Below the pieces are notes generated by a model. It saw only the letters and a list, made by a program, of their open reading frames with translations. It was not told where the DNA came from and ran no database searches. A DNA stretch of 64,000 nucleotides from Escherichia coli (GTDB lineage: Bacteria; Pseudomonadota; Gammaproteobacteria; Enterobacterales; Enterobacteriaceae), in NCBI RefSeq assembly GCF_003790525.1, contig NZ_CP033635.1; one strand, given 5' to 3'. A program made the position numbers and the translations under genes. This document shows positions 33,798-52,961 of this stretch, one piece after another (position 1 is the stretch's first letter; each line of letters starts with the position of its first letter).

Positions 33798-35780
33798 TCA
33801 GACTATTGTGGCCCACCGCAGTCGTAGCTTCATCCCCCAGGAACTGGTCCAGCCGCTGGTTGTGGAGATTACCCGCCCCTTCGATATCACTACGAACGTC
33901 GGGGTTACTCTAATTCTCCATAAACGGGATATTGTGCCATCAGCATCATTGATCACCGGGAACCTGTTCCTCCTGAGAGCCAGCTTCCGGCTCACCTCAT
34001 CAGATGAGCCGGAACGGTATGCAATCGTCATCACATTCTCTCCCCTGGCAGATAAAGCCGCCACCTCCGCGCAGTGCAACAACATCCGCCTCCTGCAGCG
34101 ACTTCTGCACATTGTCTTTTTGCAGCACATTGTATTTATTGAATTTACAGGTAACACACCAGTCTGCAGTCACATCGATAAATACCCGCTTATGCTGAGC
34201 CAGCGCCTCCTTAATCGCCTGTTCACTGAGAGGCTGCCAGACAACCTGTTCTTTCGTTGTACTGTGTGAGGATACTCCCAAGTGTGGCAGTAACAGTGTT
34301 GTCAGCCAGAAGGCAGAACCCAGCATCATCAGGCCAAGCACCCGACGCAAAATATTCATCCATCCTCCCGGATGGGGCAAACACAACGCAAGCCCGGGTC
34401 GCAACGCCACCAACAGCCACGGAAGACTCATTCCCACGCCCAGTGCAAAGAAAATCCCCCACAGAGTGGGTAGTGATGCCGTCAGCGCCACTGCCACTGC
34501 CGTACCGAGGAAGGGGGCGCTACACGGTGTCGCCAGAAGAGTCGCAAAAGCGCCCTGCCAGAAATGTCCGGACATTCCATTACCACCAAATGTCGCCAGA
34601 CGAGTCATGAGGCCGGAAGGCAGGCGGAACTCAAACAGGCCAAACAGACTGGCACTAAAAATCAGCATAACCAGCGTCATCAGAACAATAAACCAGGGAC
34701 TCTGATACTGGATCCCCCACCCCAGAGCCCGGTTTGTCAGCCGCAGAAGGGTCATTAACGTAGCCAGAGCCATAAAGGAAGTAAGGATCCCGGCTACAGA
34801 CATCAGAAACTGACATCGAATCTGCTGACGGTTTTTCTCTTCCACCAGTAAAACTGAGCCCAGCTTCATCCCCAGAACCGGTAATACACAGGGCATCAGG
34901 TTAAGAATGAGTCCACCAGCTAATGCCATCAGAGTGACCTGCCAAAGAGGTAAGACATTCTCTGCTATTTTGGTTGCACCTGCCGCAACCGTAAGCGTAC
35001 TTTCCTGAGCGAGGCCGCCGCTTTCAATAACCAGTGTGACTTGTTGGCCAGTCAGGTCCGGCGCCCCCTCTCCCCAGTTGTCCGTGACCGGCACAGATGC
35101 GAGCAGATTCTTGCCGTCAATCTGCATCTGCGGCTTACCGAAGCTTGCATAATCAACAGAATCCAGATAAATATCCGGAGATGACCAGCCGTCTGCCCGT
35201 ATTGCGGTAATGAGCAGTCCACCAGGTCGGTAAACCGCGTTTAAGGAATCCGCTACCCCATGGGAAAGCGGAATTTTCCCCATGGCCTGTGCGTAATCAT
35301 GTGCAAATGTTGTATCCTGTGTGGAAACATTCACAGTGAAAGGGTAATCGGTCAGCAGACAGACATTGCTGCAGACAGGCAGGGTCAGTACGCCAGTGAT
35401 CCTCTCAGGTGATATACCACGTAACACCACGGGAAACGTGACTGTGTTGTGATATCCCGTAGTGGTAATGCCGGCCACGTCAAAACGTGAAGGCCAGGCC
35501 AGTACCACTCCACTTCCGGTGTTTCACTTTTCCAGTCGACTGACGGTGCAATCCCCCCTTATCCGGGTGAGCGCCAGTAAGTTTTCCAGCCGTTATCCAG
35601 TTTAACGTCCAGCAAAACACGTGTTTCCCCGGAGACCACGGAATCAGCACGTATCCGTATACTGGCATGCTCATTCTCAGGAGAACGCAACCAGCCACTT
35701 TCGGTAGCCCAGGATACAGGCAGCCAGAACAATAACAGACAGAGAAGCATCTGCCTGAAAACATAATTAACATAATTCAC
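33798..35780 (-). pseudogene. scsB: scsB (DsbD-family copper-sensitivity suppressor) with frameshift, fused by deletion to the 3' half of scsD; scsC missing
   Basis: 35559..35780 gives the N-terminus (...DNGWKTYWRSPG). 34000..35508 gives the body with LMPCVLPVL and a C-terminal DWCVTCKFN thioredoxin motif. 33798..34157 carries GENVMTIAYRSG...VTPTFVVISKGRVISTTSGWTSSWGMKLRLRWA, matching recalled Salmonella ScsD. Confidence 0.7.
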
Positions 35781-38706: not shown

Positions 38707-39498
38707 TTAATTTCGGGAGAAGCTTAAGGTTGCCACATCGACAGTTTCATCACACAGGTTTTTGTCCTGAAATACTTTCTTATTTTTGACTTTAGCTAGC
38801 CATTGCCCGACATGAAGGGAGGGTACAGTGATGATACCGTCCTCATTACTTACAAAGGTAAGTTCTGCTTTATGAGCCGAATGTTTATGCTCTGCCGCAT
38901 GAGTATGGCGGGATGATTTCAGATAACTGACAGAGTCAAGCTCCAGAGTGGCTCCGGCAAGCGGGGAAGTTTTATACAGAACTTTCAGCTTCACATCTTC
39001 ACCGAAACGACTGATATCGGATAACGGAATGATTTCAAGCTCATCCCCTATTGGATACTGATAGAGTTGTGCTGGCATCTGCTGTTCACCAGGAATAAAA
39101 GATTTTGCATATTTAGTCACAAACTCACAGTATGCCACATCATTTCTGCCCTCCCGGCTGACAGGCTTCCATCCTGACGAGGTTCTCGACCAGTATCCCG
39201 GTTTCATTTTCGTTGACAGAACGTAGCTATTACCGTTGCCTGCAGTCTCAATTTTATAGACATAATCCGTGGATGTTGGCTTCAGCGTTATTGTCTCTTT
39301 CCCGTTATAAAGCCGGGGAGTTTCAAAGAAATCCCTTCTGTCAGGAATCGTGCCCTTTGAGGGGAAATTATGACCATAACCAATCTCTGCGATAACGTTG
39401 TTCTCTGCCTGTTTGCCGGTAATCCAGACATCATGGGCCAGGACATGCCCCGATGCTGTCAGACAAAGAGCTAAGATATAGCCTGTATTTTTCATCAT
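38707..39498 (-). CDS. periplasmic DUF4198-family protein, co-operonic with the heme receptor
   Basis: Signal peptide followed by the AHDVWITG...GYGHNFP start typical, as I recall, of DUF4198. Lies 18 nt downstream of the receptor gene. Confidence 0.58.
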   Translation of the reverse strand: MMKNTGYILALCLTASGHVLAHDVWITGKQAENNVIAEIGYGHNFPSKGTIPDRRDFFETPRLYNGKETITLKPTSTDYVYKIETAGNGNSYVLSTKMKPGYWSRTSSGWKPVSREGRNDVAYCEFVTKYAKSFIPGEQQMPAQLYQYPIGDELEIIPLSDISRFGEDVKLKVLYKTSPLAGATLELDSVSYLKSSRHTHAAEHKHSAHKAELTFVSNEDGIITVPSLHVGQWLAKVKNKKVFQDKNLCDETVDVATLSFSRN

Positions 39499-39516
39499 GA
39501 TTTATTTCCTGAGAGG

Positions 39517-41487
39517 TTACCACTGATAACGGGTATAAAGACTGACAGTTCGGCCTGAAAGCGGCACACCTTTGCCATTCATGGCAAGCTTGTTGAAGGC
39601 ATTATCCAGAGTTACTGACGCCTCAAAGCCTTTAACACTTACAGGCTTATAAGACAGTGAAAAGGAATGTATGGCATAGCCAGCCTGATAGGAGTCGCCT
39701 TTTTTCACATGCGTGGCTGATGCTGAAAGTTCAGCACGCCATCCGGCATAAACGCCTCTATGACCAACAGGTATGCTGATGTCACTGATAAGTGTGTCAG
39801 GATTGCCGGAGCCCAGCCATTCCCTGCTGCTGGCATCCATACTTTCCGTCCGGTTATAAGAAAGCACCCAGTCAACATAATCAGACTGGTAATTTCCCTG
39901 CATATCCCATCCCCAGATACGGGCCCGGGATACATTATAAGAATAAGAACGCATCCGTTTCATATCCACGCGTGTGGCAATATAGTTTCTGGCATCCGTT
40001 CCGAAATATCCGCCTTTTAACTGCAGCCGGTCATTGTCTGTAAGCAGGCCATCCAGTTGAATACCTGCGCCAATCTCACGGGTGATGTTATTTTCTGGTT
40101 TCAGATTAAGGTTAGGAACCCAGTAATTGGGTTTACCCTTGCGGTAAAAATGTACATCATCCCTGTACATTTCTGCCATTGTGGGCGCTCGGAATGCAGA
40201 GGATATGGAGCCGTACATCATCAGCCAGTCTGTCGGTGAGACTGAAATCGCCGCCCTTGGGGACAGGCGTTCGGCTTTCAGTTCTCCGGCACGGGGATTG
40301 AAGCTCTTGTACCGGTCATAGCGGGAACCGACGATAATGTTAACAGGGTAGCTTTTCATTGTCATTTCATCCTGGAAATACAACGATGTAAAGTCAATAT
40401 TTCCTTCCGGATATAGTGTGGCAGAGCCTTCTGGCTTCTGCTGCTGACGGTAATATTCAGCGCCATAACTTAACTGATGGGCTCCCGGAAAAATCAGAGT
40501 ATGACTCCTGTTGACAACATTAACACCGGAGGTTCTGTTGTTTCTCCATTCTGCCGTTTTGTTGTGACCGTTTGTCTTGATAGTGATATCACTGAGATAT
40601 AACGTTGACTGTACATTGATGAGGCTGTTATCCACAGGAGCGTACTGGTACCAGAACTGTACGTCATTTTGTACTGTTTTTCTGTCACGCAGGCCGCTGT
40701 CACCATGTGTCTGAGTGGGATTGCCCGGTTCAGTGGTGTTATTCCGGTAGAGACGCAAGCTGGCACCTGCTTTGTTACTGTCTGTTATACCGACAGAGCC
40801 TTTCGCAAACAGGGCTGCAGGTTTTTCCTTGTTAGGTGCGCGCTCACCATCACTTTGATAGATATTACCTCTTTTACGCATAATGACAGAAAGGATCGCA
40901 TCTGTTTTTCCGGTTTTACCGAACCAGGTGAGCCCCGAGCCTGTGCTGTGGTCACCACTGGCAATATTTCCCCACAGACTTAAACCGTTTGTCTCTCCGG
41001 GGGGAAGGAAATCTGCTGCATCGGCAATTCTGAAGTCCACTACACCTCCCAGCCCGCCACTGCCGTACAGACTGGAGTTTGGCCCGCGGACAACTTCGAT
41101 ACGTTTGACAAGAGCCGGATCCAGATAAGTGCCACTGCTTTTTGCCATGTCACTAAGTTGGCGGACGCCGTCAACAAGAACAAGTACCCCGCTTTTGTCA
41201 TAGCCGCGTAGATTAAAGGTCTGCCCATTGGTCCGTCCTGCACCAGTCTGGCTGAGACCGGCAACACCTTTCAGCATGCCGGCCGATGTAACCGCATTCT
41301 GACTCCACGGTGTGTCATTCGTGACGACACTGACCATCGACGGCGTTTCAAATACCGTGTTCTGATTTCCTGTCGCGACAATGGTGATTGTATCTTTAGC
41401 CATAGAAGAATGACTGGTCGCTGCCTGTAGTCCCACCGGGACTATAATTAATGTACAAATGACAGTTCTGATTACATTCATATACAT
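39517..41487 (-). CDS. TonB-dependent outer-membrane heme/hemoprotein receptor (ChuA/HemR family paralogue)
   Basis: 656 aa. TonB box DTITIVATG, plug domain, FRAP box (SAFRAPTMAEMY) and an NPNL-like box (VPNLNLKPE), terminal YQW. Collinear by eye with recalled ChuA. Confidence 0.85.
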   Translation of the reverse strand: MYMNVIRTVICTLIIVPVGLQAATSHSSMAKDTITIVATGNQNTVFETPSMVSVVTNDTPWSQNAVTSAGMLKGVAGLSQTGAGRTNGQTFNLRGYDKSGVLVLVDGVRQLSDMAKSSGTYLDPALVKRIEVVRGPNSSLYGSGGLGGVVDFRIADAADFLPPGETNGLSLWGNIASGDHSTGSGLTWFGKTGKTDAILSVIMRKRGNIYQSDGERAPNKEKPAALFAKGSVGITDSNKAGASLRLYRNNTTEPGNPTQTHGDSGLRDRKTVQNDVQFWYQYAPVDNSLINVQSTLYLSDITIKTNGHNKTAEWRNNRTSGVNVVNRSHTLIFPGAHQLSYGAEYYRQQQKPEGSATLYPEGNIDFTSLYFQDEMTMKSYPVNIIVGSRYDRYKSFNPRAGELKAERLSPRAAISVSPTDWLMMYGSISSAFRAPTMAEMYRDDVHFYRKGKPNYWVPNLNLKPENNITREIGAGIQLDGLLTDNDRLQLKGGYFGTDARNYIATRVDMKRMRSYSYNVSRARIWGWDMQGNYQSDYVDWVLSYNRTESMDASSREWLGSGNPDTLISDISIPVGHRGVYAGWRAELSASATHVKKGDSYQAGYAIHSFSLSYKPVSVKGFEASVTLDNAFNKLAMNGKGVPLSGRTVSLYTRYQW

Positions 41488-44219: not shown

Positions 44220-45812
44220 ATGGTAAGAAGATTAGCGACTATTGCACCGTTACTGGTTGCGTTGGGTGTAAGCTCAACTGTTTATGCAAAGACACTGGTT
44301 TACTGCTCTGAAGGCTCACCTGAGAGTTTTAATCCTCAGCTTTATACTTCGGGGACCAGTGTTGATGCAAGTGCTGTTCCGGTGTATAACCGACTGGTTG
44401 ATTTTAAGGTGGGCACTACTGTGCTGGTTCCCAGCCTGGCTGAACGATGGGAAATCAGTGGTGACGGGAAAGCATATACTTTTTATCTGCGTAAAGGCGT
44501 TAAATTTCACAGTAATAAATACTTTACTCCAACGCGAGAGTTTAATGCTGATGATGTTATTTTTTCATTTATGCGCCAGAAGGATCCTGGTCATCCATAT
44601 CACCAAGTTTCTGGTGGGACGTATTCTAATTTTGAAAGTCTGGAATTCAGTTCACTCATAACCAGTATCGACAGAGTTGATGATCATACAGTTCGCTTTA
44701 ATCTTTCACATCCGGAGGCTCCCTTTATTGCTGATTTAGCCTGGTATTTTGCTTCTGTTTTATCCGCTGAATATGCTGATGCTATGCTTAAAGCCGGAAC
44801 ACCTGAACGGGTTGATATGAATCCAATTGGGACAGGGCCATATCAACTCAAACAATATCAGAAAGATTCGCGTATTTTATTTACGGCTTTTGATGATTAC
44901 TGGGAGGGGAAAGCAAAACTGGAACGCATTGTTTTCAGTATCACACCAGATTCCTCAGTGCGTCTGGCTAAACTGGAGAAAAATGAGTGTCAGGTGATGC
45001 CGTTTCCTAATCCATCAGATCTTTCCAGAATCAAAAAAAATCCGGCTCTTAAATTGATGAGTAAAGCCGGACTTAATACAGGTTTTCTTGCTTTCAATAC
45101 GCAAAAAGCTCCTCTGGATAATGTAAAAGTTCGTCAGGCACTGGCAACAGCAATTAATAAAAATGCCATTATAGATGCTGTATTTCAGGGGACTGGTAGT
45201 GCTGCTAAAAATCTGCTGCCACCAGGAGTATGGAGTGCAGACAGTGAATTGAAAGATTATGAATATGATCCAGAAAAAGCCAGATCATTGCTAAAAGAAG
45301 CTGGTTTTGATAATGGAATGACTATTGATCTTTGGGCGATGCCAGTTCAACGCCCTTATAACCCAAACGCTAAACGAATGGCCGAAATGATTCAGGCTGA
45401 CTGGGCAAAAGTGGGAGTAAAAACAAACATTATCACTTTTGAATGGGGGGAATATCTTAATCGTATAAAGAACGGAGAGCATCAGGCTGCGTTGATGGGA
45501 TGGACAACCGCAACAGGTGATCCTGATAATTTTTTTGGTCCACTCTTTACCTGCACTTCTGCTAACGGTGGTTCTAATTCCGCGAAGTGGTGCTACAAAC
45601 CTTTCGATGAAATTATTTCTCAGGCTAAAGTAATAACTGATCAGGAAAAACGAGCAGTGCTCTATAAAAAAGCACAACAGATGATGCATGAACAAATACC
45701 AGCGGTGATGATTGCACATTCCACCATTTTTGAACCAATACGCAATGAAGTCACAGGTTATGAAATAGATCCATTTGGTAAACATATTTTTTATCAGGTT
45801 GATATAAAATAA
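44220..45812 (+). CDS. DppA/OppA-family (cluster C, peptide) ABC substrate-binding protein, orphan
   Basis: ATG 44220. Signal peptide MVRRLATIAPLLVALGVSSTVYA, then KTLVYCSEGSPESFNPQ..., which is very DppA-like. No permease or ATPase genes follow. Confidence 0.85.
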   Translation: MVRRLATIAPLLVALGVSSTVYAKTLVYCSEGSPESFNPQLYTSGTSVDASAVPVYNRLVDFKVGTTVLVPSLAERWEISGDGKAYTFYLRKGVKFHSNKYFTPTREFNADDVIFSFMRQKDPGHPYHQVSGGTYSNFESLEFSSLITSIDRVDDHTVRFNLSHPEAPFIADLAWYFASVLSAEYADAMLKAGTPERVDMNPIGTGPYQLKQYQKDSRILFTAFDDYWEGKAKLERIVFSITPDSSVRLAKLEKNECQVMPFPNPSDLSRIKKNPALKLMSKAGLNTGFLAFNTQKAPLDNVKVRQALATAINKNAIIDAVFQGTGSAAKNLLPPGVWSADSELKDYEYDPEKARSLLKEAGFDNGMTIDLWAMPVQRPYNPNAKRMAEMIQADWAKVGVKTNIITFEWGEYLNRIKNGEHQAALMGWTTATGDPDNFFGPLFTCTSANGGSNSAKWCYKPFDEIISQAKVITDQEKRAVLYKKAQQMMHEQIPAVMIAHSTIFEPIRNEVTGYEIDPFGKHIFYQVDIK

Positions 45813-45817
45813 CAGGT

Positions 45818-46035
45818 GTAAGCTCCGTCTGTGACGTCTGGTGATAGTTGTCCAGTCTGGTAACAATAGCGTCCATCTATACAGATGGACGCGAATGATG
45901 AATTTTCAGACAACAAGATATTGATGGTTTTCGTTTTTATCTGCCCGACGCATTACGTCTAATATTCGAAGAACAATTATCTGTCTAGTTAATCGCTCAT
46001 CAGTCAGGGCTAAGTCATTTCACCATCACGATTTT
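45818..46035 (+). mobile_element. IS66-family left-end fragment (copy C, inverted relative to copies A and B) with a decayed orf1 start
   Basis: GTAAGCTCCGTCTGTGACGTC... starts 6 bp after the dppA-like stop. Aligns with the reverse complement of 38453-38542. The orf1 remnant reads MNFQTTRY*...FRFYLPDALRLIFEE... Confidence 0.6.
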
Positions 46036-46043
46036 TTTAACTA

Positions 46044-46154
46044 TTACCCGAATGAGCAAAGTGAGGATGATGCCATGACGCAGGTCAGAGCGACCAGCAC
46101 CGCGACAATTAATAAAACAGGAAGGCTGCGCGTTTCAGACAGTGATGTCAACAT
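46044..46154 (-). pseudogene. hok/gef-family type I toxin remnant (C-terminally truncated)
   Basis: Manual translation gives MLTSLSETRSLPVLLIVAVLVALTCVMASSSLCSFG*. The hydrophobic helix and the spacing from LIV to SLC match Hok family members (e.g. recalled HokE ...[22 protein letters not shown]...). The periplasmic C-terminal ~20 aa are absent and no SD is evident. Confidence 0.4.
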
Positions 46155-46910
46155 AAACTATCAGTAACGTTAACTGCATCAGAAGCACAAGTATGGATTT
46201 TACCATTGTGCAGAACGACTTGCCCATGGGAAATAATAAATTTAATAAAAAAAGAAAGATATGGTTGCAAATATTATAATATCCCGGGCAACGATCCTGA
46301 TTTTCTCAATACATGTTTTCCTCACGTATTTGTTCTTCAAAGAGCAATCAGCATCTGTTACTGAATGGTTGTTATGAGCATTAAAAGAATAACGGGAAGT
46401 CGGTGACGTGGGGATATGTCGCGTGTTGAATTATACAAAGGGCCGACATCTTCATGGTGTCGGCCAGTCATAAGTGCCAGATATTAACCGTCAGTTACAG
46501 GGGGTAACCGCAGGAAACAGGCTACGCTCCGGGTAACGGGTTATCAATAGTTATTTATTTACTTAAATTCAGTGATTTTGTTCTGTATCATTGCGCTTTC
46601 TTACTGGTATAAATAATGATCGATTGATTTTCGCATGAGCATCAGAATTTGTCGTAATTTGAGGTCCAGGTGCTGTACATACAGGAATATGGTTCTGTCA
46701 GCGGTAGATTGCCGTTGCTGAGCAGAATGTTCAGGCTGGATGGTGAGATTACAGCTGATATTGCTGTGCTGATGGCAGAATGGTAAACGTTAAGTGCGCG
46801 TTCCCGGCAATGAAGGCAAACACGTCATGACAGCAACGCAAAATAAACCAGGAACGCGCGGTATTTTTTATCCCGAATGAAAGCGATTGTCCATATCCGG
46901 TAATAAATAT

Positions 46911-47162
46911 TCAGCAGTATGTAAAGTGCGGTTTGCCCGGTTCTGGTGGAAGGGGCTCCAGATACACATCATCAACAAACACACACGGGAATTTATCCAC
47001 CGGGCAGCCTGCACGGTCAGCCATATCCTGCAGCGTCACACTGTGCTTCGCGACATCAATAAACACAACATCCGGTTCCATTTCATCGGGGATTCGGGTT
47101 GCGTGATGCATAATGCGATGGACTGAAGGGCAGTGACGGTAACCAAAAACACGTATACGCAT
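46911..47162 (-). CDS. small hypothetical protein, possibly glutaredoxin/NrdH-like fold without a CxxC
   Basis: 83 aa. The order MRIRVFGYRHCPSVH...VVFIDV...FPCVFVDD resembles the beta-alpha-beta order of Grx/NrdH. The assignment is weak. Confidence 0.4.
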   Translation of the reverse strand: MRIRVFGYRHCPSVHRIMHHATRIPDEMEPDVVFIDVAKHSVTLQDMADRAGCPVDKFPCVFVDDVYLEPLPPEPGKPHFTYC

Positions 47163-47485
47163 GATGTACCTCCTGGTTGCAGGGTGACTGTATCATCAGA
47201 CCTTATCATGCGTTTAAAAAATGTACTGTAACTCACATTTTTTGGTAAGACGGTGGCTATTACTGCAAATGATGATGGCTCAGTTTTTATTTTTTATTCA
47301 ATATTTTCATGTTGTTATTGTTATTTTGTTTGTTCATACCCTGTGTGGTTCCCCGTTCTTTACATTCAGGCACTTCCGTTTCCTTTAACGTTTTCGTTAC
47401 TCTCTGAAGCTTGTGGTATCTGTGATTACTGATGCCTGCCGTCATACTGCGAAATACCGGATATCAGACCGTGGAGGATTCTGCC

Positions 47486-48058
47486 ATGCAACGCTGGTTT
47501 CTGCCTTTTCTTGCGTCTCTGTTGCTGTTACAGGGTTGTGTTGCCGCTGCGCTGGTCGGTACGGCTGCTGTGGGTACTAAAGTGTCAGTGGATCCCCGAA
47601 GTGCGGGAACGCAGATTGATGATGAAATTCTGGAAGCAAGGGTCAGCCGTGCGCTGTCGAAGGACTCACAACTCAGGGGTGATGCGCGAATTATCGTCAC
47701 AGCATACCAGGGCACTGTACTGCTGACAGGGCAGGTACCAGACCGTAGTGCAGGTGAAAGAGCCCGTCAGATTGCAGATGGTGTTGAGGGGACTGTGCAG
47801 GTATGGAATGAAATAAGGACGGGAAAACCACTCCGTGCTGATAAAACAACCACTGATGCCTGGCTGACCACAAAAATCCGGGCACAGTTACTGAAGAGCA
47901 GCCGGGTGAAACTGTCAGATGTAAAGGTACTGACGGAGAATGGTGAAGTCTTTCTTATGGGGAGAGTTACAGAGAAGGAAGGACAGGCTGCTGCAGATAT
48001 CGCCAGTCGCGTGGCGGGGGTGAAACACGTCATCACCGCATTCAGTTATATACGATGA
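47486..48058 (+). CDS. dual-BON-domain outer-membrane lipoprotein, DolP (YraP) paralogue
   Basis: ATG 47486 after GGAGGA. Lipobox LLLQGC. Two BON-like repeats (...IIVTAYQGTVLLTGQV... and ...VKVLTENGEVFLMGRV...), as in DolP. Confidence 0.8.
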   Translation: MQRWFLPFLASLLLLQGCVAAALVGTAAVGTKVSVDPRSAGTQIDDEILEARVSRALSKDSQLRGDARIIVTAYQGTVLLTGQVPDRSAGERARQIADGVEGTVQVWNEIRTGKPLRADKTTTDAWLTTKIRAQLLKSSRVKLSDVKVLTENGEVFLMGRVTEKEGQAAADIASRVAGVKHVITAFSYIR

Positions 48059-48065
48059 GTATGGA

Positions 48066-48096
48066 GAGCCCGTTCGTTCGGGCTCTGTATTTATCT
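48066..48096. terminator. bidirectional hairpin terminator between the convergent dolP-like and yebF-like genes
   Basis: GAGCCCG-ttcgtt-CGGGCTC followed by a T-rich tract. Confidence 0.65.
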
Positions 48097-48105
48097 TCCC
48101 CCCGT

Positions 48106-48459
48106 TCATCCCTGGCGTTGCCAGGTGGCACTTCCGTTCTTACAGTCAACGCGCACACGATACTGAATATCTGCTTTCTTTCCACGGGCAGTGAGATGCA
48201 CAGTGATGACATTATCACCTTTATTTACCGGCTCACGAAGATTCACCCAGACAACGGGACGCTGCTGACCGAGAATTTCCTGGTCATCTTTCCACTGAAA
48301 CACCTGTTTCTGGAGATAGTCCCGTTTGACGCTGGCTGCAACAGTCGATGCTTCCTGTCCTTCACATCGTGGAAAACTGACGGTTCTGTTTTTTTCAGCG
48401 GCCAGTGATGATGCACAGATACCGAAGATGAGCAGAATGGAAGAGAGTGCTTTGTTCAT
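48106..48459 (-). CDS. YebF-family secreted protein paralogue
   Basis: 117 aa with a signal peptide. [24 protein letters not shown]...[20 protein letters not shown] aligns by eye with recalled YebF ([24 protein letters not shown]...[21 protein letters not shown]). Confidence 0.8.
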   Translation of the reverse strand: [117 protein letters not shown]

Positions 48460-48773
48460 TTACAGGTCCTCCACAGGGGATAGTTTCATTGAGGAGTTAC
48501 ATCTTAACAACATAAAACAGCATTTCCTGTAACAATCCTCACATAACTTCTTATCCCGTCACTTCCCGTTTCACATGGGCAGCATAGCCTGTTTTTTAAC
48601 CCGTTTTTCAGTCATTTCCATAAACAAATCTTCGCTGACGATAAATCTTTTTTCTGTTTAACGATCGATTTTGTCGATCGATATGATATGTATAATTCAT
48701 TTTACCAATGAGAAATCCATCTTAAAATTGGACAAATTCATATGTCTGAAGGAAACATCAGGAGAGGTGGATT

Positions 48774-49523
48774 GTGAAAAAGTTACTGGCACTCACTGCG
48801 GTAGCTGCGCTTACCGGCACGTTTTCAACGCTGGCGCTGGCAGATGCGGATAAAACCGGGTTCTATATCACGGGTAAGGCTGGTGCATCTGTTATCACTC
48901 AGGATAATCAGCGTTTTAGTCAGGACTTTGGTGATGTTGTTTATAAGTATAAAGGCGGTGACAAGAGCGATACGGTTTTTGGCGCCGGCCTTGCGGTGGG
49001 ATATGACTTTTATCAGCACTACAATGTACCTGTTCGCACGGAAGTTGAATTCTATGGTCGCGGCTCTGCGAATTCCCGCTATACACTGGATACATGGGAG
49101 TCCCCGTCTGGAGATAATGGTTGGAAGGAAGACACACAAAACAGGCTCAGCGTGAATACCCTGATGGTGAGCACGTATTATGATTTCAGAAACAGCAGTG
49201 CTTTCACTCCGTGGGTATCAGCCGGACTGGGTTATGCGCGGGTACATCATAAGGCAACATACACCGATACCACCTGGCATAAATCAGGTGAAGTAAGTGA
49301 TGCTTCTTCATTACATTACTCGGGATATGATAACAATTTCGCATGGAGCCTTGGTGTTGGCGTGAAATATGATGTCACCCCGGATTTCAGTCTTGACCTT
49401 GCTTATCGCTATCTTGATGCAGGTGATTCAACCCTGACGTATAAAGACGGGCAGGATACATATAAATCCTCTGTTGATGTCAGAAGTAACGAATTTACGT
49501 TAGGCGCTACATACAGCTTCTGA
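48774..49523 (+). CDS. Hra1/Hek/Tia-family 8-stranded beta-barrel adhesin/invasin
   Basis: GTG 48774 after GGAGAGGTGG. Signal peptide, then TGFYITGKAGASV..., AFTPWVSAGLGYARVH, FAWSLGVGVKYDVTPDFSLDLAYRYLDAGDS, terminal F. Closely patterned on recalled Hra1. Confidence 0.82.
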   Translation: MKKLLALTAVAALTGTFSTLALADADKTGFYITGKAGASVITQDNQRFSQDFGDVVYKYKGGDKSDTVFGAGLAVGYDFYQHYNVPVRTEVEFYGRGSANSRYTLDTWESPSGDNGWKEDTQNRLSVNTLMVSTYYDFRNSSAFTPWVSAGLGYARVHHKATYTDTTWHKSGEVSDASSLHYSGYDNNFAWSLGVGVKYDVTPDFSLDLAYRYLDAGDSTLTYKDGQDTYKSSVDVRSNEFTLGATYSF

Positions 49524-49735
49524 ATGTAATATCTGACTACACGTTGTTAAATTCAAAATCGCAGCGTGTAGTCTGATTTGATAGTTTAATACAACAGACA
49601 CGTACCTTCATGGCACTTCCTTAGCCCCCGGTTACGTTCATTTGTACCAGATGTAAGTGGCGTAAAACCATTGTCCAAATAGTGGCTCTAAAAGATTAGA
49701 TACTCATTTAGATATTATATAGCATAAGGTGATAT

Positions 49736-50089
49736 ATGGGATTTTGGGATGCTATAATGGGATTCGGTAAGCTTGCTTCTAATGCTGCTGCTGAAACGAT
49801 GAAAAAAGTCAATTTCAATGTGTGGGATAAAATAAAATCATCTCCGGTAGAAAGAATTAACGATTTTTATAACCAAAATAATACATCTGAGTATAATCGG
49901 CCAGCATACAGAGGATTGGCTATTGCTGCTCTATGTTTTAGGGGGGATTGGAGCGGGGAGCGTTTATGGCGTGAAGATCAGGAGGCTGCTAATTGGTTAA
50001 AGAATTTTAGAATAAAAATTTCACTGGATACATGTGATTCTGCAGATGAACTACGTAAAATAATCGATCGTCTTACAGAACTGAATTGA
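49736..50089 (+). CDS. hypothetical protein (117 aa), cassette gene A
   Basis: ATG after AAGGTGA. AT-rich. No recognisable motif. Confidence 0.55.
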   Translation: MGFWDAIMGFGKLASNAAAETMKKVNFNVWDKIKSSPVERINDFYNQNNTSEYNRPAYRGLAIAALCFRGDWSGERLWREDQEAANWLKNFRIKISLDTCDSADELRKIIDRLTELN

Positions 50090-50178
50090 TTACTGGAGGT
50101 GAAGTTATTTTTATAGGGATAAGTTGAAAATATTTATATGCCCTGTAAGTGTTATTTATATATCGAGAGCGTGAGCCA

Positions 50179-50379
50179 ATGGTCTTTCTTCGACCACCTA
50201 CTACATTTATCTGTATGAATTGTCAATGGAGTAAAACTATTATTCATGTGAACTGTACAACAGGATTTTATGAATGTCCTGTGTGTGGAGAGAAAGTTAT
50301 TTATAAACGTAAGGCTACGATTACAGAAAATCTGTTTTCCAGAGTAATGCAATTCTTTCTTAAAAATCATAATATTTGA
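50179..50379 (+). CDS. small 4-Cys zinc-ribbon protein (66 aa), cassette gene B
   Basis: CMNC...(19 aa)...CPVC pattern. The start at 50179 is chosen because it retains both Cys pairs; the track ORF starts at 50149. Confidence 0.5.
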   Translation: MVFLRPPTTFICMNCQWSKTIIHVNCTTGFYECPVCGEKVIYKRKATITENLFSRVMQFFLKNHNI

Positions 50380-50460
50380 TTGATAATAATAATTGTGTCC
50401 CGATGTCTGGCGGAGATAGTTTTTGGAAAGTGATTGTGAAATTTTTAGGTTTTTTGTTGT

Positions 50461-51117
50461 ATGACTGATAATGAAAATATTCTCACACCATCAAAAATCA
50501 TAAAATTTCTGGATTACGCTTATGAAAAATCCATCGATGGTATTGGTATCCCGGGGATAGATACGGCACATAGTCTTGCGGAAAGTTATCTGAAAACGGG
50601 TAGTAGTTTAAAAGAACAGATAAATAGCCTTATTCGATGGCAGAATACCAAGTCTGCCACATCAGGTTTTCTTACTGGTCTTGGAGGAATTATTACATTA
50701 CCAGTAACTATACCGACCAATATTTCAAGTGTCCTTTTCATTCAGGTCAGGATGGTAGCATCTATTGCGATCATGTGTGGTCAGGATATTCGTGATGATA
50801 AAGTCAGAACTATTGTTTATACCTGTCTTGTAGGTAATGCTGCGAAAGATATTTTGAAGGAAGCAGGAATTCAGATAGGACAAAGGTTGACAACAAATGC
50901 AATTAGATGTATTAGCAAAGAAATTATTGTAAAGATAAATAAGGCTGTCGGTTTCAGACTGCTTACAAAAACAGGTGCTACTGGTGTTATTAATATGTCA
51001 AAGCTTGTTCCTGTTGTAGGAGGAATCGTTGGTGGTAGTTTTGATGCGATAACAACCAACATCGTTGGTAATTATGCCAGAGATACATTCCTGAGTTTGA
51101 TTGATAATGATTTATAA
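50461..51117 (+). CDS. EcsC-family protein, cassette gene C
   Basis: 218 aa. The Gly-rich amphipathic core ...TSGFLTGLGGIITLPVTIPTNISSVLFIQVRMVASIAIMCGQDIRDD... matches my recollection of PF12787 EcsC proteins. Confidence 0.55.
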   Translation: MTDNENILTPSKIIKFLDYAYEKSIDGIGIPGIDTAHSLAESYLKTGSSLKEQINSLIRWQNTKSATSGFLTGLGGIITLPVTIPTNISSVLFIQVRMVASIAIMCGQDIRDDKVRTIVYTCLVGNAAKDILKEAGIQIGQRLTTNAIRCISKEIIVKINKAVGFRLLTKTGATGVINMSKLVPVVGGIVGGSFDAITTNIVGNYARDTFLSLIDNDL

Positions 51118-51516
51118 AATAAAAGTTTCATAAAAAATAGTATTTTAGGTGTGCTGACGATAGTGGATACTTTAGTATTATTGCTTCAAGTTGCATAATT
51201 TTTAACTAACATTAGGTATGAAATTATCCTGACTGGCGGGTAATACTGCCGCTCAATATGGCAAGGTTGTATTACACTGCAAGGAGAAATTCATCGCATA
51301 TCCTTACCCACAAATTTGGAGGCTATTTTATTTGCCAGTAATAATCATGTTAATCCTGAGAATATAGTTTGATATCATATGGTTAATCATTTATCTTGAT
51401 AGATATCTTCTGGTTTGTATAGGAATTAACTATTGAATATGTCGCCTGAAATCAGAAATCAAAAAATACAAATGACAGTTAACTCCCCACCAACCACTGC
51501 GGTTGGTGGGGAGGAC

Positions 51517-52710
51517 TTATTTCGTTTTTACGTTTTTCTCCATAAGTGAATCAATGTAATCAGCGTACCACTGCATCATTTCACGACGTCCATCCAGATA
51601 TTGCGCATGGTTATAAGTGCCACGCATGACGTTTTTATCAACATGAGCAAGCTGGAGTTCAATCCAGGCTGAGCTGAAATCATGGTCATGGAGAATGGTG
51701 CTGAAGGTATGACGAAATCCGTGGGCTGTTGTCAGGGCATGCCAGCCTGACTGCTCAAGGAATTCATTGATACACTTGCGGTTTCGCGGGAGATCTTTTC
51801 TGAATGCACCAGGAATAATAAAGGCGGAATTACGCGATTCAGTGCGTGTTTTTATCTCCTCCAGTAACGCCAGTACCTGGCGTGAAAGCGGCACAACGTG
51901 CGGTCGTCGCATTTTCATTCTTTCTTTCGGAATAACCCACAGGGCCTCCGTGAAATTAATTTCGTCCCAGGTTGCCAGTCGCAGTTCTCCGGTGCGAACA
52001 GCAGTCAGAACCAGCATCTGCGTTGCCAGCGACATCAGATTTTCGGATGCCGTTATCTGATGCATGAAAGCTCCCATCTGTTCTTCAGAAAGCGTCCTGC
52101 GCTGTTGTTTTTCAGGAGGAAGCAGTACCCCGCTGAGTGTCGATGCCGGATTAACGGTAGCACGTCCTGTTGCTATGGCATAATCAAAAACCTGCGCACA
52201 GAGCTGGCGTGTTTTACGCAGTGCTTCAAGTTTTCCCTGTTCTTCTATAGTCCTCAGAACGTTCAGTATTTCCATGGGGCGGATCCCGGTCACAGGACGG
52301 TTTCCAAGAGCAGGGAAAACATGATTTTCAAGTCTTGCACGCTGATCTGCCTGGTAACCTGTTGTCCATCGACGTGCCATATGGGTAAGCAGCTCCTCTG
52401 CAATGGTGCGAAATGTGCAGGCCATACTTTCCCTGATGGCAAGTTTTCGCGCCTGTTTTTCATACGACGGATCTTTACCTTCAGCCAGAAGTTTCCGTGC
52501 TTCATCCCGCTTCTGACGAGCCTGAGCCAGTGATATGTCAGGATAGACACCAATCACCAGTTTCTTTTCCTTACCGGCAAAGCGGTACTTCAGATTCCAG
52601 TAACGGGCACCGGATTTTTTGACAAGAAGATAAAGGCCCTGACCGTCAGAAAGTTTGTAATCCCTGTCAGCAGGTTTAGCCGACTCAATTTGTCGAACAG
52701 TAAGTGGCAT
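51517..52710 (-). CDS. P4-type tyrosine integrase (DUF4102 arm-binding N-terminus plus catalytic core)
   Basis: 397 aa. N-terminal LTVRQIESAKPADRDYKLSDGQGLYLLV, and catalytic RTGELR...HGFRHTF...RGTY. Confidence 0.92.
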   Translation of the reverse strand: MPLTVRQIESAKPADRDYKLSDGQGLYLLVKKSGARYWNLKYRFAGKEKKLVIGVYPDISLAQARQKRDEARKLLAEGKDPSYEKQARKLAIRESMACTFRTIAEELLTHMARRWTTGYQADQRARLENHVFPALGNRPVTGIRPMEILNVLRTIEEQGKLEALRKTRQLCAQVFDYAIATGRATVNPASTLSGVLLPPEKQQRRTLSEEQMGAFMHQITASENLMSLATQMLVLTAVRTGELRLATWDEINFTEALWVIPKERMKMRRPHVVPLSRQVLALLEEIKTRTESRNSAFIIPGAFRKDLPRNRKCINEFLEQSGWHALTTAHGFRHTFSTILHDHDFSSAWIELQLAHVDKNVMRGTYNHAQYLDGRREMMQWYADYIDSLMEKNVKTK

Positions 52711-52961
52711 GATGTTACCCCTGCAATGTAGCCCCCATAATAGCCCCCAAAATCATCTTGATGTTCATGGAATATGATTTACCCCCAGAGAGAAGGAATT
52801 TCTTATGATACCTTATTTCAAAGGGGGTTAAAGGGGGAGGGGTTATCTCTGTTGAAATCAGTTGATATCAATAGATCCTCCCCAGAGGGGCGAGGGGACC
52901 GTTCGAACTCGTATTTGACTTTGTCAACAATAATAAAGGGAGCTTTCGCTCCCTTGTTAGA

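Follow-up and report, generated by a model that had tools for sequence, protein, structure and literature searches.

Divergent extra dolP and yebF genes beside a Tia-family adhesin gene: probable independent cargo of a mosaic Escherichia coli island

The window analyzed here, a stretch of 64,000 nucleotides from Escherichia coli (contig NZ_CP033635.1, assembly GCF_003790525.1), carries four intact open reading frames (ORFs) at positions 46911-49523, all present where the initial annotation had placed them, and these encode a glutaredoxin (Grx)-like protein, a DolP-like protein (DolP2), a YebF-like protein (YebF2) and an outer-membrane protein (OMP) of the Tia/Hra family. We think it probable, at roughly 70%, that the four genes accumulated as independent cargo near the integrase, at one end of a mosaic fitness island, and that each acts as its own family does. 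The evidence lies in the identities of the genes and their family memberships at the sequence level, the mosaic structure of the island, the rarity and separability of the gene set, and purifying selection on the intact copies, all of which are direct observations on the genomes compared. All four genes fall in families already described, and the arrangement is that of a typical mosaic island. As matters stand, the cluster amounts to ordinary accessory cargo of a rare, mainly poultry-associated E. coli island: a new Tia-family allele together with divergent extras of two core envelope genes. For these genes a dedicated helper, passenger or immunity function had been suggested; the comparison did not support such a module, as the genes form separate units, their linkage reflects one recent segment, and they occur apart from each other. 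The features of the locus, by window position, are as follows.

46911-47162, minus strand: Grx-like gene, 83 aa; Grx models are matched below their cutoffs
47163-47485, no strand: intergenic region between the divergent grx-like gene and dolP2; AT-rich, GC 0.40
47486-48058, plus strand: dolP2, a DolP xenologue of 190 aa; predicted outer-membrane lipoprotein
48065-48086, no strand: hairpin rich in G+C, located where dolP2 and yebF2 converge; 8 pairs, 6 of them G-C
48106-48459, minus strand: yebF2, a YebF xenologue of 117 aa
48460-48773, no strand: intergenic region between the divergent yebF2 and OMP gene; AT-rich, GC 0.36; a site of recombination and of insertion sequences (IS) in relatives
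48774-49523, plus strand: OMP gene, a Tia/Hra/Hek-family beta-barrel of 249 aa with a GTG start

Because the strands alternate (minus for the grx-like gene, plus for dolP2, minus for yebF2 and plus for the OMP gene), the four genes constitute four transcription units, and each would be transcribed on its own, with the two AT-rich intergenic regions as putative divergent promoter regions. Recombination would have placed them side by side, with seams near ~46792, ~48055 and ~48590.

Families of the four proteins

What we predict below of the localization, biochemical activity and fitness benefit of the four products follows from family membership. DolP2 scores 279 bits against the NCBIfam DolP equivalog model NF008247 (cutoff 184), contains two stretches matching Pfam BON (E = 2.8e-34), and is 63% identical to K-12 DolP. 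The best start of its gene is the ATG at 47486, with a GGAGG ribosome-binding site 7 nt before it; the ORF list extends the frame to 47432. DolP2 has the same length and architecture as the core E. coli DolP (YraP), with the lipobox, the two BON domains and the W127/L136/L137 residues of the BON2 helix all kept. The lipobox LLLQGC, with its +1 Cys, is invariant in the alignment of DolP2 with core DolPs. DolP residues W127 and L137 are critical for anionic-phospholipid binding and function (PMC7806268); their counterparts in DolP2, where W126 and L135/L136 align to W127 and L136/L137 of DolP, are invariant across 10 sequences. The start of the lipid-binding BON2 helix differs from that of DolP by G120D, E121K, S123T and N124T. 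Going by its family, DolP2 would be a Lol-sorted outer-membrane lipoprotein that would bind anionic phospholipid through its BON2 helix, and it could supplement or back up core DolP in the homeostasis of the outer membrane and of BAM, the machinery for beta-barrel assembly.

YebF2 matches Pfam PF13995 at E = 1.3e-27 (96 bits, cutoff 27) and passes the 'YebF_not_Cmi' model NF041240 (117.7, cutoff 110), but falls below the stricter NF010224 model (124, cutoff 147); it is 51% identical to K-12 YebF. Its C32 and C106 align with both cysteines of K-12 YebF and are invariant in the homologue alignment, and its signal-like N-terminus (…ASSLA/AE) resembles the K-12 YebF signal peptide when the two are aligned. 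PF13995 membership, both cysteines and a signal-like N-terminus are thus common to YebF2 and YebF (PDB 2LQV), whereas the gene is not in the yebG-yebF-yebE locus where core yebF is found and, unlike core yebF, is often a pseudogene in related islands. By analogy with its family, YebF2 would be a small protein of the YebF type, exported by Sec and held by a disulfide bond.

Both genes had been noted as second copies of core genes, and this is borne out by a survey of 5426 complete E. coli genomes: core dolP is present at 95% nucleotide identity or more in 5424 genomes and core yebF, at the same threshold, in 5425. Since the core copies are near-universal, the island dolP2 and yebF2 come on top of them. 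We considered a recent duplication of the core genes as their source and rejected it, because the core genes are conserved at 95% nucleotide identity or more within the species, and the island proteins are only 63% and 51% identical to their core counterparts. As judged from sequence, dolP2 and yebF2 are distant xenologues and not recent duplicates. In a midpoint-rooted neighbor-joining tree DolP2 has a long branch and does not fall within the core Enterobacteriaceae DolP clade, and its gene is island-borne in only ~0.3% of genomes, whereas core dolP sits in the lpoA-yraN-diaA-dolP locus. DolP2 and YebF2 are natural divergent variants with key residues kept, and as such could serve for complementation mapping of the essential features of the two families.

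Another reading is protection of the colicin M type, in which YebF2 would be an orphan immunity protein like Cmi (the colicin M immunity protein), guarding the cell from a bacteriocin that degrades lipid II, and DolP2 would help to protect the envelope. Cmi shares both the fold and the Pfam family of YebF (PMC5821083), and YebF2 does match Cmi structures weakly among PDB sequences (E = 0.012). The match to YebF 2LQV is far better (E = 1.2e-27), however, and YebF2 lies above the cutoff of a model built for YebF and not Cmi; its N-terminus resembles the cleavable signal peptide of YebF rather than a demonstrated inner-membrane anchor; and its neighbors are dolP2, the OMP gene, orf117 and an EcsC-family gene, with no colicin M-type gene in the block that is conserved between related islands (46792-51319, from the Grx-like gene to the EcsC gene, common to the window and to related loci L001, L002 and L016). 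With relative similarity favoring YebF and no toxin gene in the conserved block, we rejected Cmi-type immunity, which we regard as very improbable indeed.

The OMP matches Pfam OMP_b-brl at E = 4.8e-17 and shows 76% full-length identity to a protein annotated as Tia by the Prokaryotic Genome Annotation Pipeline (PGAP); identity is 69% to one other E. coli member of the family and 58% to another. Differences from Tia fall mostly in non-conserved stretches of the alignment, presumably loops. The protein is, by these alignments, a new allele of the Hra/Tia/Hek family and a predicted adhesin/invasin, and like the heat-resistant agglutinins Tia, Hra1, Hra2, Hek and Hes, to which Salmonella PagN is related, it is a beta-barrel OMP of ~25 kDa. 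The Hra/Tia/Hek family commonly sits on integrase-bearing islands (PMC5539235), as does the OMP gene in the window. It would be expected to act as a Tia/Hra-type surface adhesin/invasin.

The fourth protein is divergent. It is similar in size to E. coli glutaredoxin 1 (GrxA, PDB 1GRX/1EGO) and has an N-terminal active-site Cys at the same position, but identity to GrxA is 26% and the scores lie far under the model cutoffs (19.6 bits against Pfam Glutaredoxin, cutoff 22.9; 33 bits against NCBIfam GrxA NF008401, cutoff 84). The active-site position reads C11-P-S-V where GrxA has CPYC, and since CPSV replaces CPYC the protein is considered monothiol; it also has a proline-rich C-terminal tail, LPPxPG, such as GrxA lacks. 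An AlphaFold2 (AF2) model of moderate confidence (predicted local distance difference test score, pLDDT, 67.7) has a predicted beta-alpha-beta layout, and the best PDB match found for it by Foldseek is 1GRX (probability 0.99, E = 0.01, template-modeling (TM) score 0.51). C11 and an FPxVFVDD motif are kept across six aligned homologues. No signal peptide was found in the protein, which is therefore placed in the cytoplasm and is neither an envelope protein nor an exported one; following its family, it would be a monothiol thiol-transferase-like redox protein. The gene identifications proposed initially thus stand for DolP, YebF and the Tia/Hra adhesin, with the Grx-like protein more exactly a divergent, monothiol, GrxA-like cytoplasmic protein, and the description of all four products as envelope or exported proteins applies to DolP2, YebF2 and the OMP but not to the Grx-like protein, which has no signal peptide.

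Distribution, separability and selection

The full four-gene segment of 2.8 kb is present at ~97% nucleotide identity in only 15 of the 5426 genomes, and dolP2 in any form, partial versions included, in 19 (~0.3%). Twelve of these 19 genomes are recorded as coming from chickens or their meat, a number that rises to 13 if the strain name Br_112_kylling is taken to mean 'chicken'; two others are from black kites, and one is of human origin. Envelope and colonization fitness in the avian gut would be a plausible benefit of the cargo. Linkage of the four genes is seen only at 94% nucleotide identity or more, and recent common descent explains it, the full set being known from a single segment of ~97% identity. 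The state of the four genes differs among the related loci (designated L) as follows.

Window, L001, L002 and L030: Grx-like protein, DolP2, YebF2 and OMP all intact
L016 (CM2) and L029: Grx-like gene frameshifted at codon 71 (seen in CM2; for L029 taken from a 71-aa match); DolP2, YebF2 and OMP intact
L031 (metagenome contig): Grx-like gene and dolP2 deleted; YebF2 and OMP intact
L019 (LH50-c): Grx-like gene frameshifted; DolP2 intact; yebF2 with a +1 frameshift after the signal peptide; OMP a 28-aa remnant
L020 (Ch1): Grx-like gene halved; DolP2 intact; yebF2 with a +1 frameshift; OMP a 28-aa remnant
L021 (GF4): Grx-like gene halved; dolP2 cut at its 3' end by IS1414; yebF2 and OMP gene absent

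The frameshifts of the Grx-like gene in CM2 and LH50-c affect the C-terminus of the protein. The metagenome contig (SKEX01000596.1, 1-2312) is a natural deletion variant of this island: it lacks exactly 46836-48022 of the window, and with that the Grx-like gene as well as dolP2 save for its final 36 nt. Homology of LH50-c and Ch1 to the window stops at ~48585-48597, between yebF2 and the OMP gene, and the same intergenic region holds an IS3 insertion in EF5-18-41 and CS5L. The OMP remnant of LH50-c and Ch1 is followed by genes for a polysaccharide deacetylase and a GT4 glycosyltransferase, a cptA-like gene and a second lpxM. We note that these adhesin-replacing genes (L019, 9506-14299; L020, 9267-14060), found in related islands of poultry E. 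coli, give this family of islands further extra copies of core genes for lipopolysaccharide (LPS) and the envelope, and that the cptA-like phosphoethanolamine transferase gene is a pseudogene.

A search with yebF2 alone identified 50 genomes, 18 in which it is linked to dolP2 and 32 with a variant of ~85% identity and no dolP2. Four of the ~85% loci were inspected, and the neighbors there are cytochrome b562, sitABCD or IS remnants; yebF2 is a pseudogene in three of the four copies (two 57-aa remnants and one with an internal stop), and the fourth, at L008, is called at the full 117 aa. The ~85% variants match the window from 48055-48061 onward, directly after the dolP2 stop codon, and because the homology of the yebF2 block begins at this stop, the junction between dolP2 and yebF2 is a recombination seam. 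Breakpoints in related islands fall at gene edges more generally. The next-nearest homologues each stand alone, at 61-70% identity for the Grx-like protein, ~70% for DolP2 and 80-82% for YebF2. The Grx-like homologue at 70% lies between a TonB-dependent receptor gene and DUF1525/traU conjugation genes, the one at 61% adjoins genes for a catalase-peroxidase and sodC, and the YebF homologues at 80-82% are found without the other three genes, the 82% copy being near hha/papB. Genes of the Tia family are present in ~800 genomes without any dolP2 or yebF2. A gene-neighborhood survey had been put forward as the way to establish co-occurrence, and its outcome goes the other way: the genes occur independently, both in related islands and as distant homologues.

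The hairpin at 48065-48086 is part of this mosaic pattern. It has a folding free energy (dG) of -23.3 kcal/mol, with z = -4.9 relative to shuffled sequences, and a U-rich tail follows it on the plus strand, that of dolP2; the tail on the yebF2 strand is not U-rich. The idea of a terminator shared by the two convergent genes is therefore only half borne out, the hairpin being terminator-like for dolP2. The hairpin falls within the yebF2 homology block, which starts at 48055, and it is to this block that it belongs, since variants without dolP2 match the window from 48055-48061. A sigma-70 scan called no promoter in 47163-47485; in the stretch that separates yebF2 from the OMP gene it picked up weak sigma-70-like sites, at 48658-48728. 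A sigma-E scan upstream of dolP2 gave no match but also missed the K-12 dolP positive control, and it was not used. An Rfam scan of 45800-52960 found no known RNA element, its sole match being a sub-threshold one to IS102.

Ratios of nonsynonymous to synonymous substitution (dN/dS) for the window against L001, L002 and L016 are 0.12-0.19 for dolP2, 0.11-0.29 for yebF2, 0.08-0.23 for the OMP gene and 0.29 for the grx-like gene, with small counts of 2 to 18 substitutions per gene. Because the values lie at 0.08-0.29, they point to purifying selection, present or recent, on the intact copies. Such selection bears on the view that the four genes are neutral, decaying hitch-hikers, remnants carried along with the integrase-proximal block to no benefit. 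Pseudogenes are indeed common in relatives (the Grx frameshift, yebF2 frameshifts and stops, the IS-cut dolP2, the OMP remnants), and the cassette is very rare (0.3% of genomes) with the core copies universal; however, all four genes are intact here and at three or more other loci, the dN/dS values are low, and the key residues of DolP and the cysteines of YebF are conserved. Neutral decay is thus unlikely.

Several points weigh against our conclusion that the genes are independent cargo. dolP2 and yebF2 are neighbors in 18 of the 19 genomes that bear dolP2; of the four products, three belong to the envelope; and another mobile DolP clade (discussed below) likewise has an OMP adhesin, YadA-like, in its vicinity. 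Related islands hold extra copies of the envelope genes lpxM, cptA and sodC, and the window has a DsbD-like gene; because related islands also hold extra envelope genes, a looser 'envelope-fitness' theme may still apply. The survey, made from sequence alone, covers a few dozen loci, and the dN/dS values derive from few substitutions.

These associations bring to mind a dedicated envelope module, in which DolP2 would aid the BAM-dependent assembly of the island adhesin with YebF2 as a secreted or periplasmic partner. The three envelope proteins stand side by side, DolP reportedly supports BamA folding under OMP stress (PMC8081527), dolP2 adjoins yebF2 in all but one of the genomes that carry it, and the YadA-like adhesin just mentioned is only 1.4 kb from its DolP gene. 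Against this, the genes form no operon, and a recombination seam separates dolP2 from yebF2 at 48055; the contig L031 has an intact OMP and YebF2 without DolP2; L019 and L020 hold DolP2 while yebF2 and the OMP gene are destroyed; the ~800 genomes with Tia-family genes manage without dolP2 or yebF2; and loci L005-L007 of the other mobile clade have a DolP gene with no adhesin called nearby. We consider such a module distinctly unlikely, and favor independent cargo.

Searches beyond these genomes yielded few relatives. Peptide-pattern scans of 185,579 species-representative genomes found no close relative of YebF2 or of the Grx-like protein, and similar scans of viral contigs found no relatives of the Grx-like protein or DolP2, such that a phage origin is unsupported. 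In a word-indexed protein search all close relatives came from E. coli or were unnamed metagenome sequences; the word index limits such searches, and 'only in E. coli' is valid for close relatives only. A tblastn search of plasmids with DolP2 and YebF2 as queries found the four-gene cassette on no plasmid; its matches were mostly to very large, chromosome- or chromid-like records with core genes, and one 91-kb Enterobacter plasmid has a DolP of 65% identity.

DolP genes on other mobile elements

DolP genes ride not only on islands but also on integrative and conjugative elements (ICEs). A group of ICE-borne E. coli DolPs (loci L005-L007 and L022-L024; for example L005, 10001-10576) is ~70% identical to DolP2 and ~71-74% identical to K-12 DolP, with 85% identity between members in the one pair measured (P0009/P0025). 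The gene is always directly after a gene for a 75-aa DUF465 protein, and is located between a defense hot spot (CBASS or Kiwa) and UvrD/TraI_2/integrase genes. These ICEs encode a TraI_2 relaxase, ArdC and PilI. No YebF, Grx or Tia-like gene was found near the ICE DolP genes; in L022-L024 they are adjoined by a TacA/TacT pair and the YadA-like adhesin gene. In the midpoint-rooted tree the ICE DolPs also fall outside the core Enterobacteriaceae DolP clade, and DolP2 does not cluster with them.

With DolP on two kinds of mobile element and a YadA-like adhesin near some of the ICE copies, one highly tentative thought, which we would not hold to be probable, is that mobile DolPs serve as element-encoded helpers of outer-membrane and BAM homeostasis that offset stress from the surface machinery of the element. 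Candidate sources of such stress might be the Tia-like or YadA-like adhesins or the conjugative pili. If it were true that mobile DolPs buffer the envelope stress of element surface proteins, this would be a new 'self-help' function of mobile elements. A literature search found no paper describing island- or ICE-borne copies of DolP or YebF.

The island and its other cargo

The island that holds the four genes, at the end nearest its integrase, is large and riddled with IS, and it is inserted just downstream of lptG, a region reported to be a variable hotspot (10.1101/2024.01.28.577318). The right end of the island is at ~52878, 84 bp beyond the lptG stop, and since the island runs past the left end of the window it is larger than 52 kb. 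The usual lptG neighbor, yjgR, is absent from the window, and the lptG-lptF-pepA segment is 100% identical to that of strain SMS-3-5. Other genes at the integrase end are as follows.

49736-50089, plus strand: orf117, in the conserved integrase-proximal block
50149-50379, plus strand: orf76, encoding a small Cys-rich protein, in the conserved integrase-proximal block
50461-51117, plus strand: EcsC-family gene, with a Pfam EcsC match, in the conserved integrase-proximal block
51517-52710, minus strand: tyrosine integrase of the island

In CM2, which also has its island at the lptG site, integrase identity is 99%; it drops to 84% in AR_0085 and 23CRST013, whose islands lie between ulaD and ulaE of the ascorbate ula operon. 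The conserved block 46792-51319 therefore occurs with differing integrases and at differing insertion sites. We also observe that the integrase end (L001, 19716-21792; L002, 19716-21888) abuts ulaD in AR_0085 but ulaE in 23CRST013, which implies opposite orientation or an inversion at the ula site. There is no tRNA gene at the island junction, nor at the ula site.

Mosaic islands of extraintestinal pathogenic (ExPEC), avian pathogenic (APEC) and Shiga toxin-producing (STEC) E. coli, such as LAA (locus of adhesion and autoaggregation), resemble this one in their terminal integrase and their IS-bounded modules of differing G+C content, and likewise carry an Hra-family adhesin gene near the integrase together with metal-uptake cargo. 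The present island differs from them in having no tRNA gene at the junction and in that the same cargo is found elsewhere in the ula operon with an 84%-identical integrase.

The 76-aa product of orf76, which lies between orf117 and the EcsC gene, has a CxxC…CxxC spacing and looks like a zinc ribbon; no significant family match was found for it, CoiA_N being below cutoff at E = 0.006. The gene is kept in L001 and L002 and is diverged, with indels, in CM2. The EcsC protein matches the PADLOC candidate PDC-S29 (E = 2.4e-86), and its gene may be a single-gene phage-defense candidate beside the integrase; it was the sole match in a PADLOC scan, which placed none of the four genes in a known or candidate defense system.

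Elsewhere the island is a patchwork in which fragments of IS3 and IS66 mix with unrelated cargo, including genes for a tripartite ATP-independent periplasmic (TRAP) transporter, a DsbD-like protein, a TonB-dependent receptor, a PepT-like peptidase and a peptide-binding protein. The DsbD-like gene (34000-35508, minus strand) encodes a DsbD/ScsB-like membrane thiol-disulfide protein with DsbD_TM and thioredoxin-like domains, and the TonB-dependent receptor gene (38707-41487, minus strand) has a DUF4198 partner. sodC and sitABCD adjoin the cassette in related islands, and the presence of these two together with the DsbD-like protein and the TonB receptor suggests a loose redox, metal and envelope-stress flavor of the cargo.

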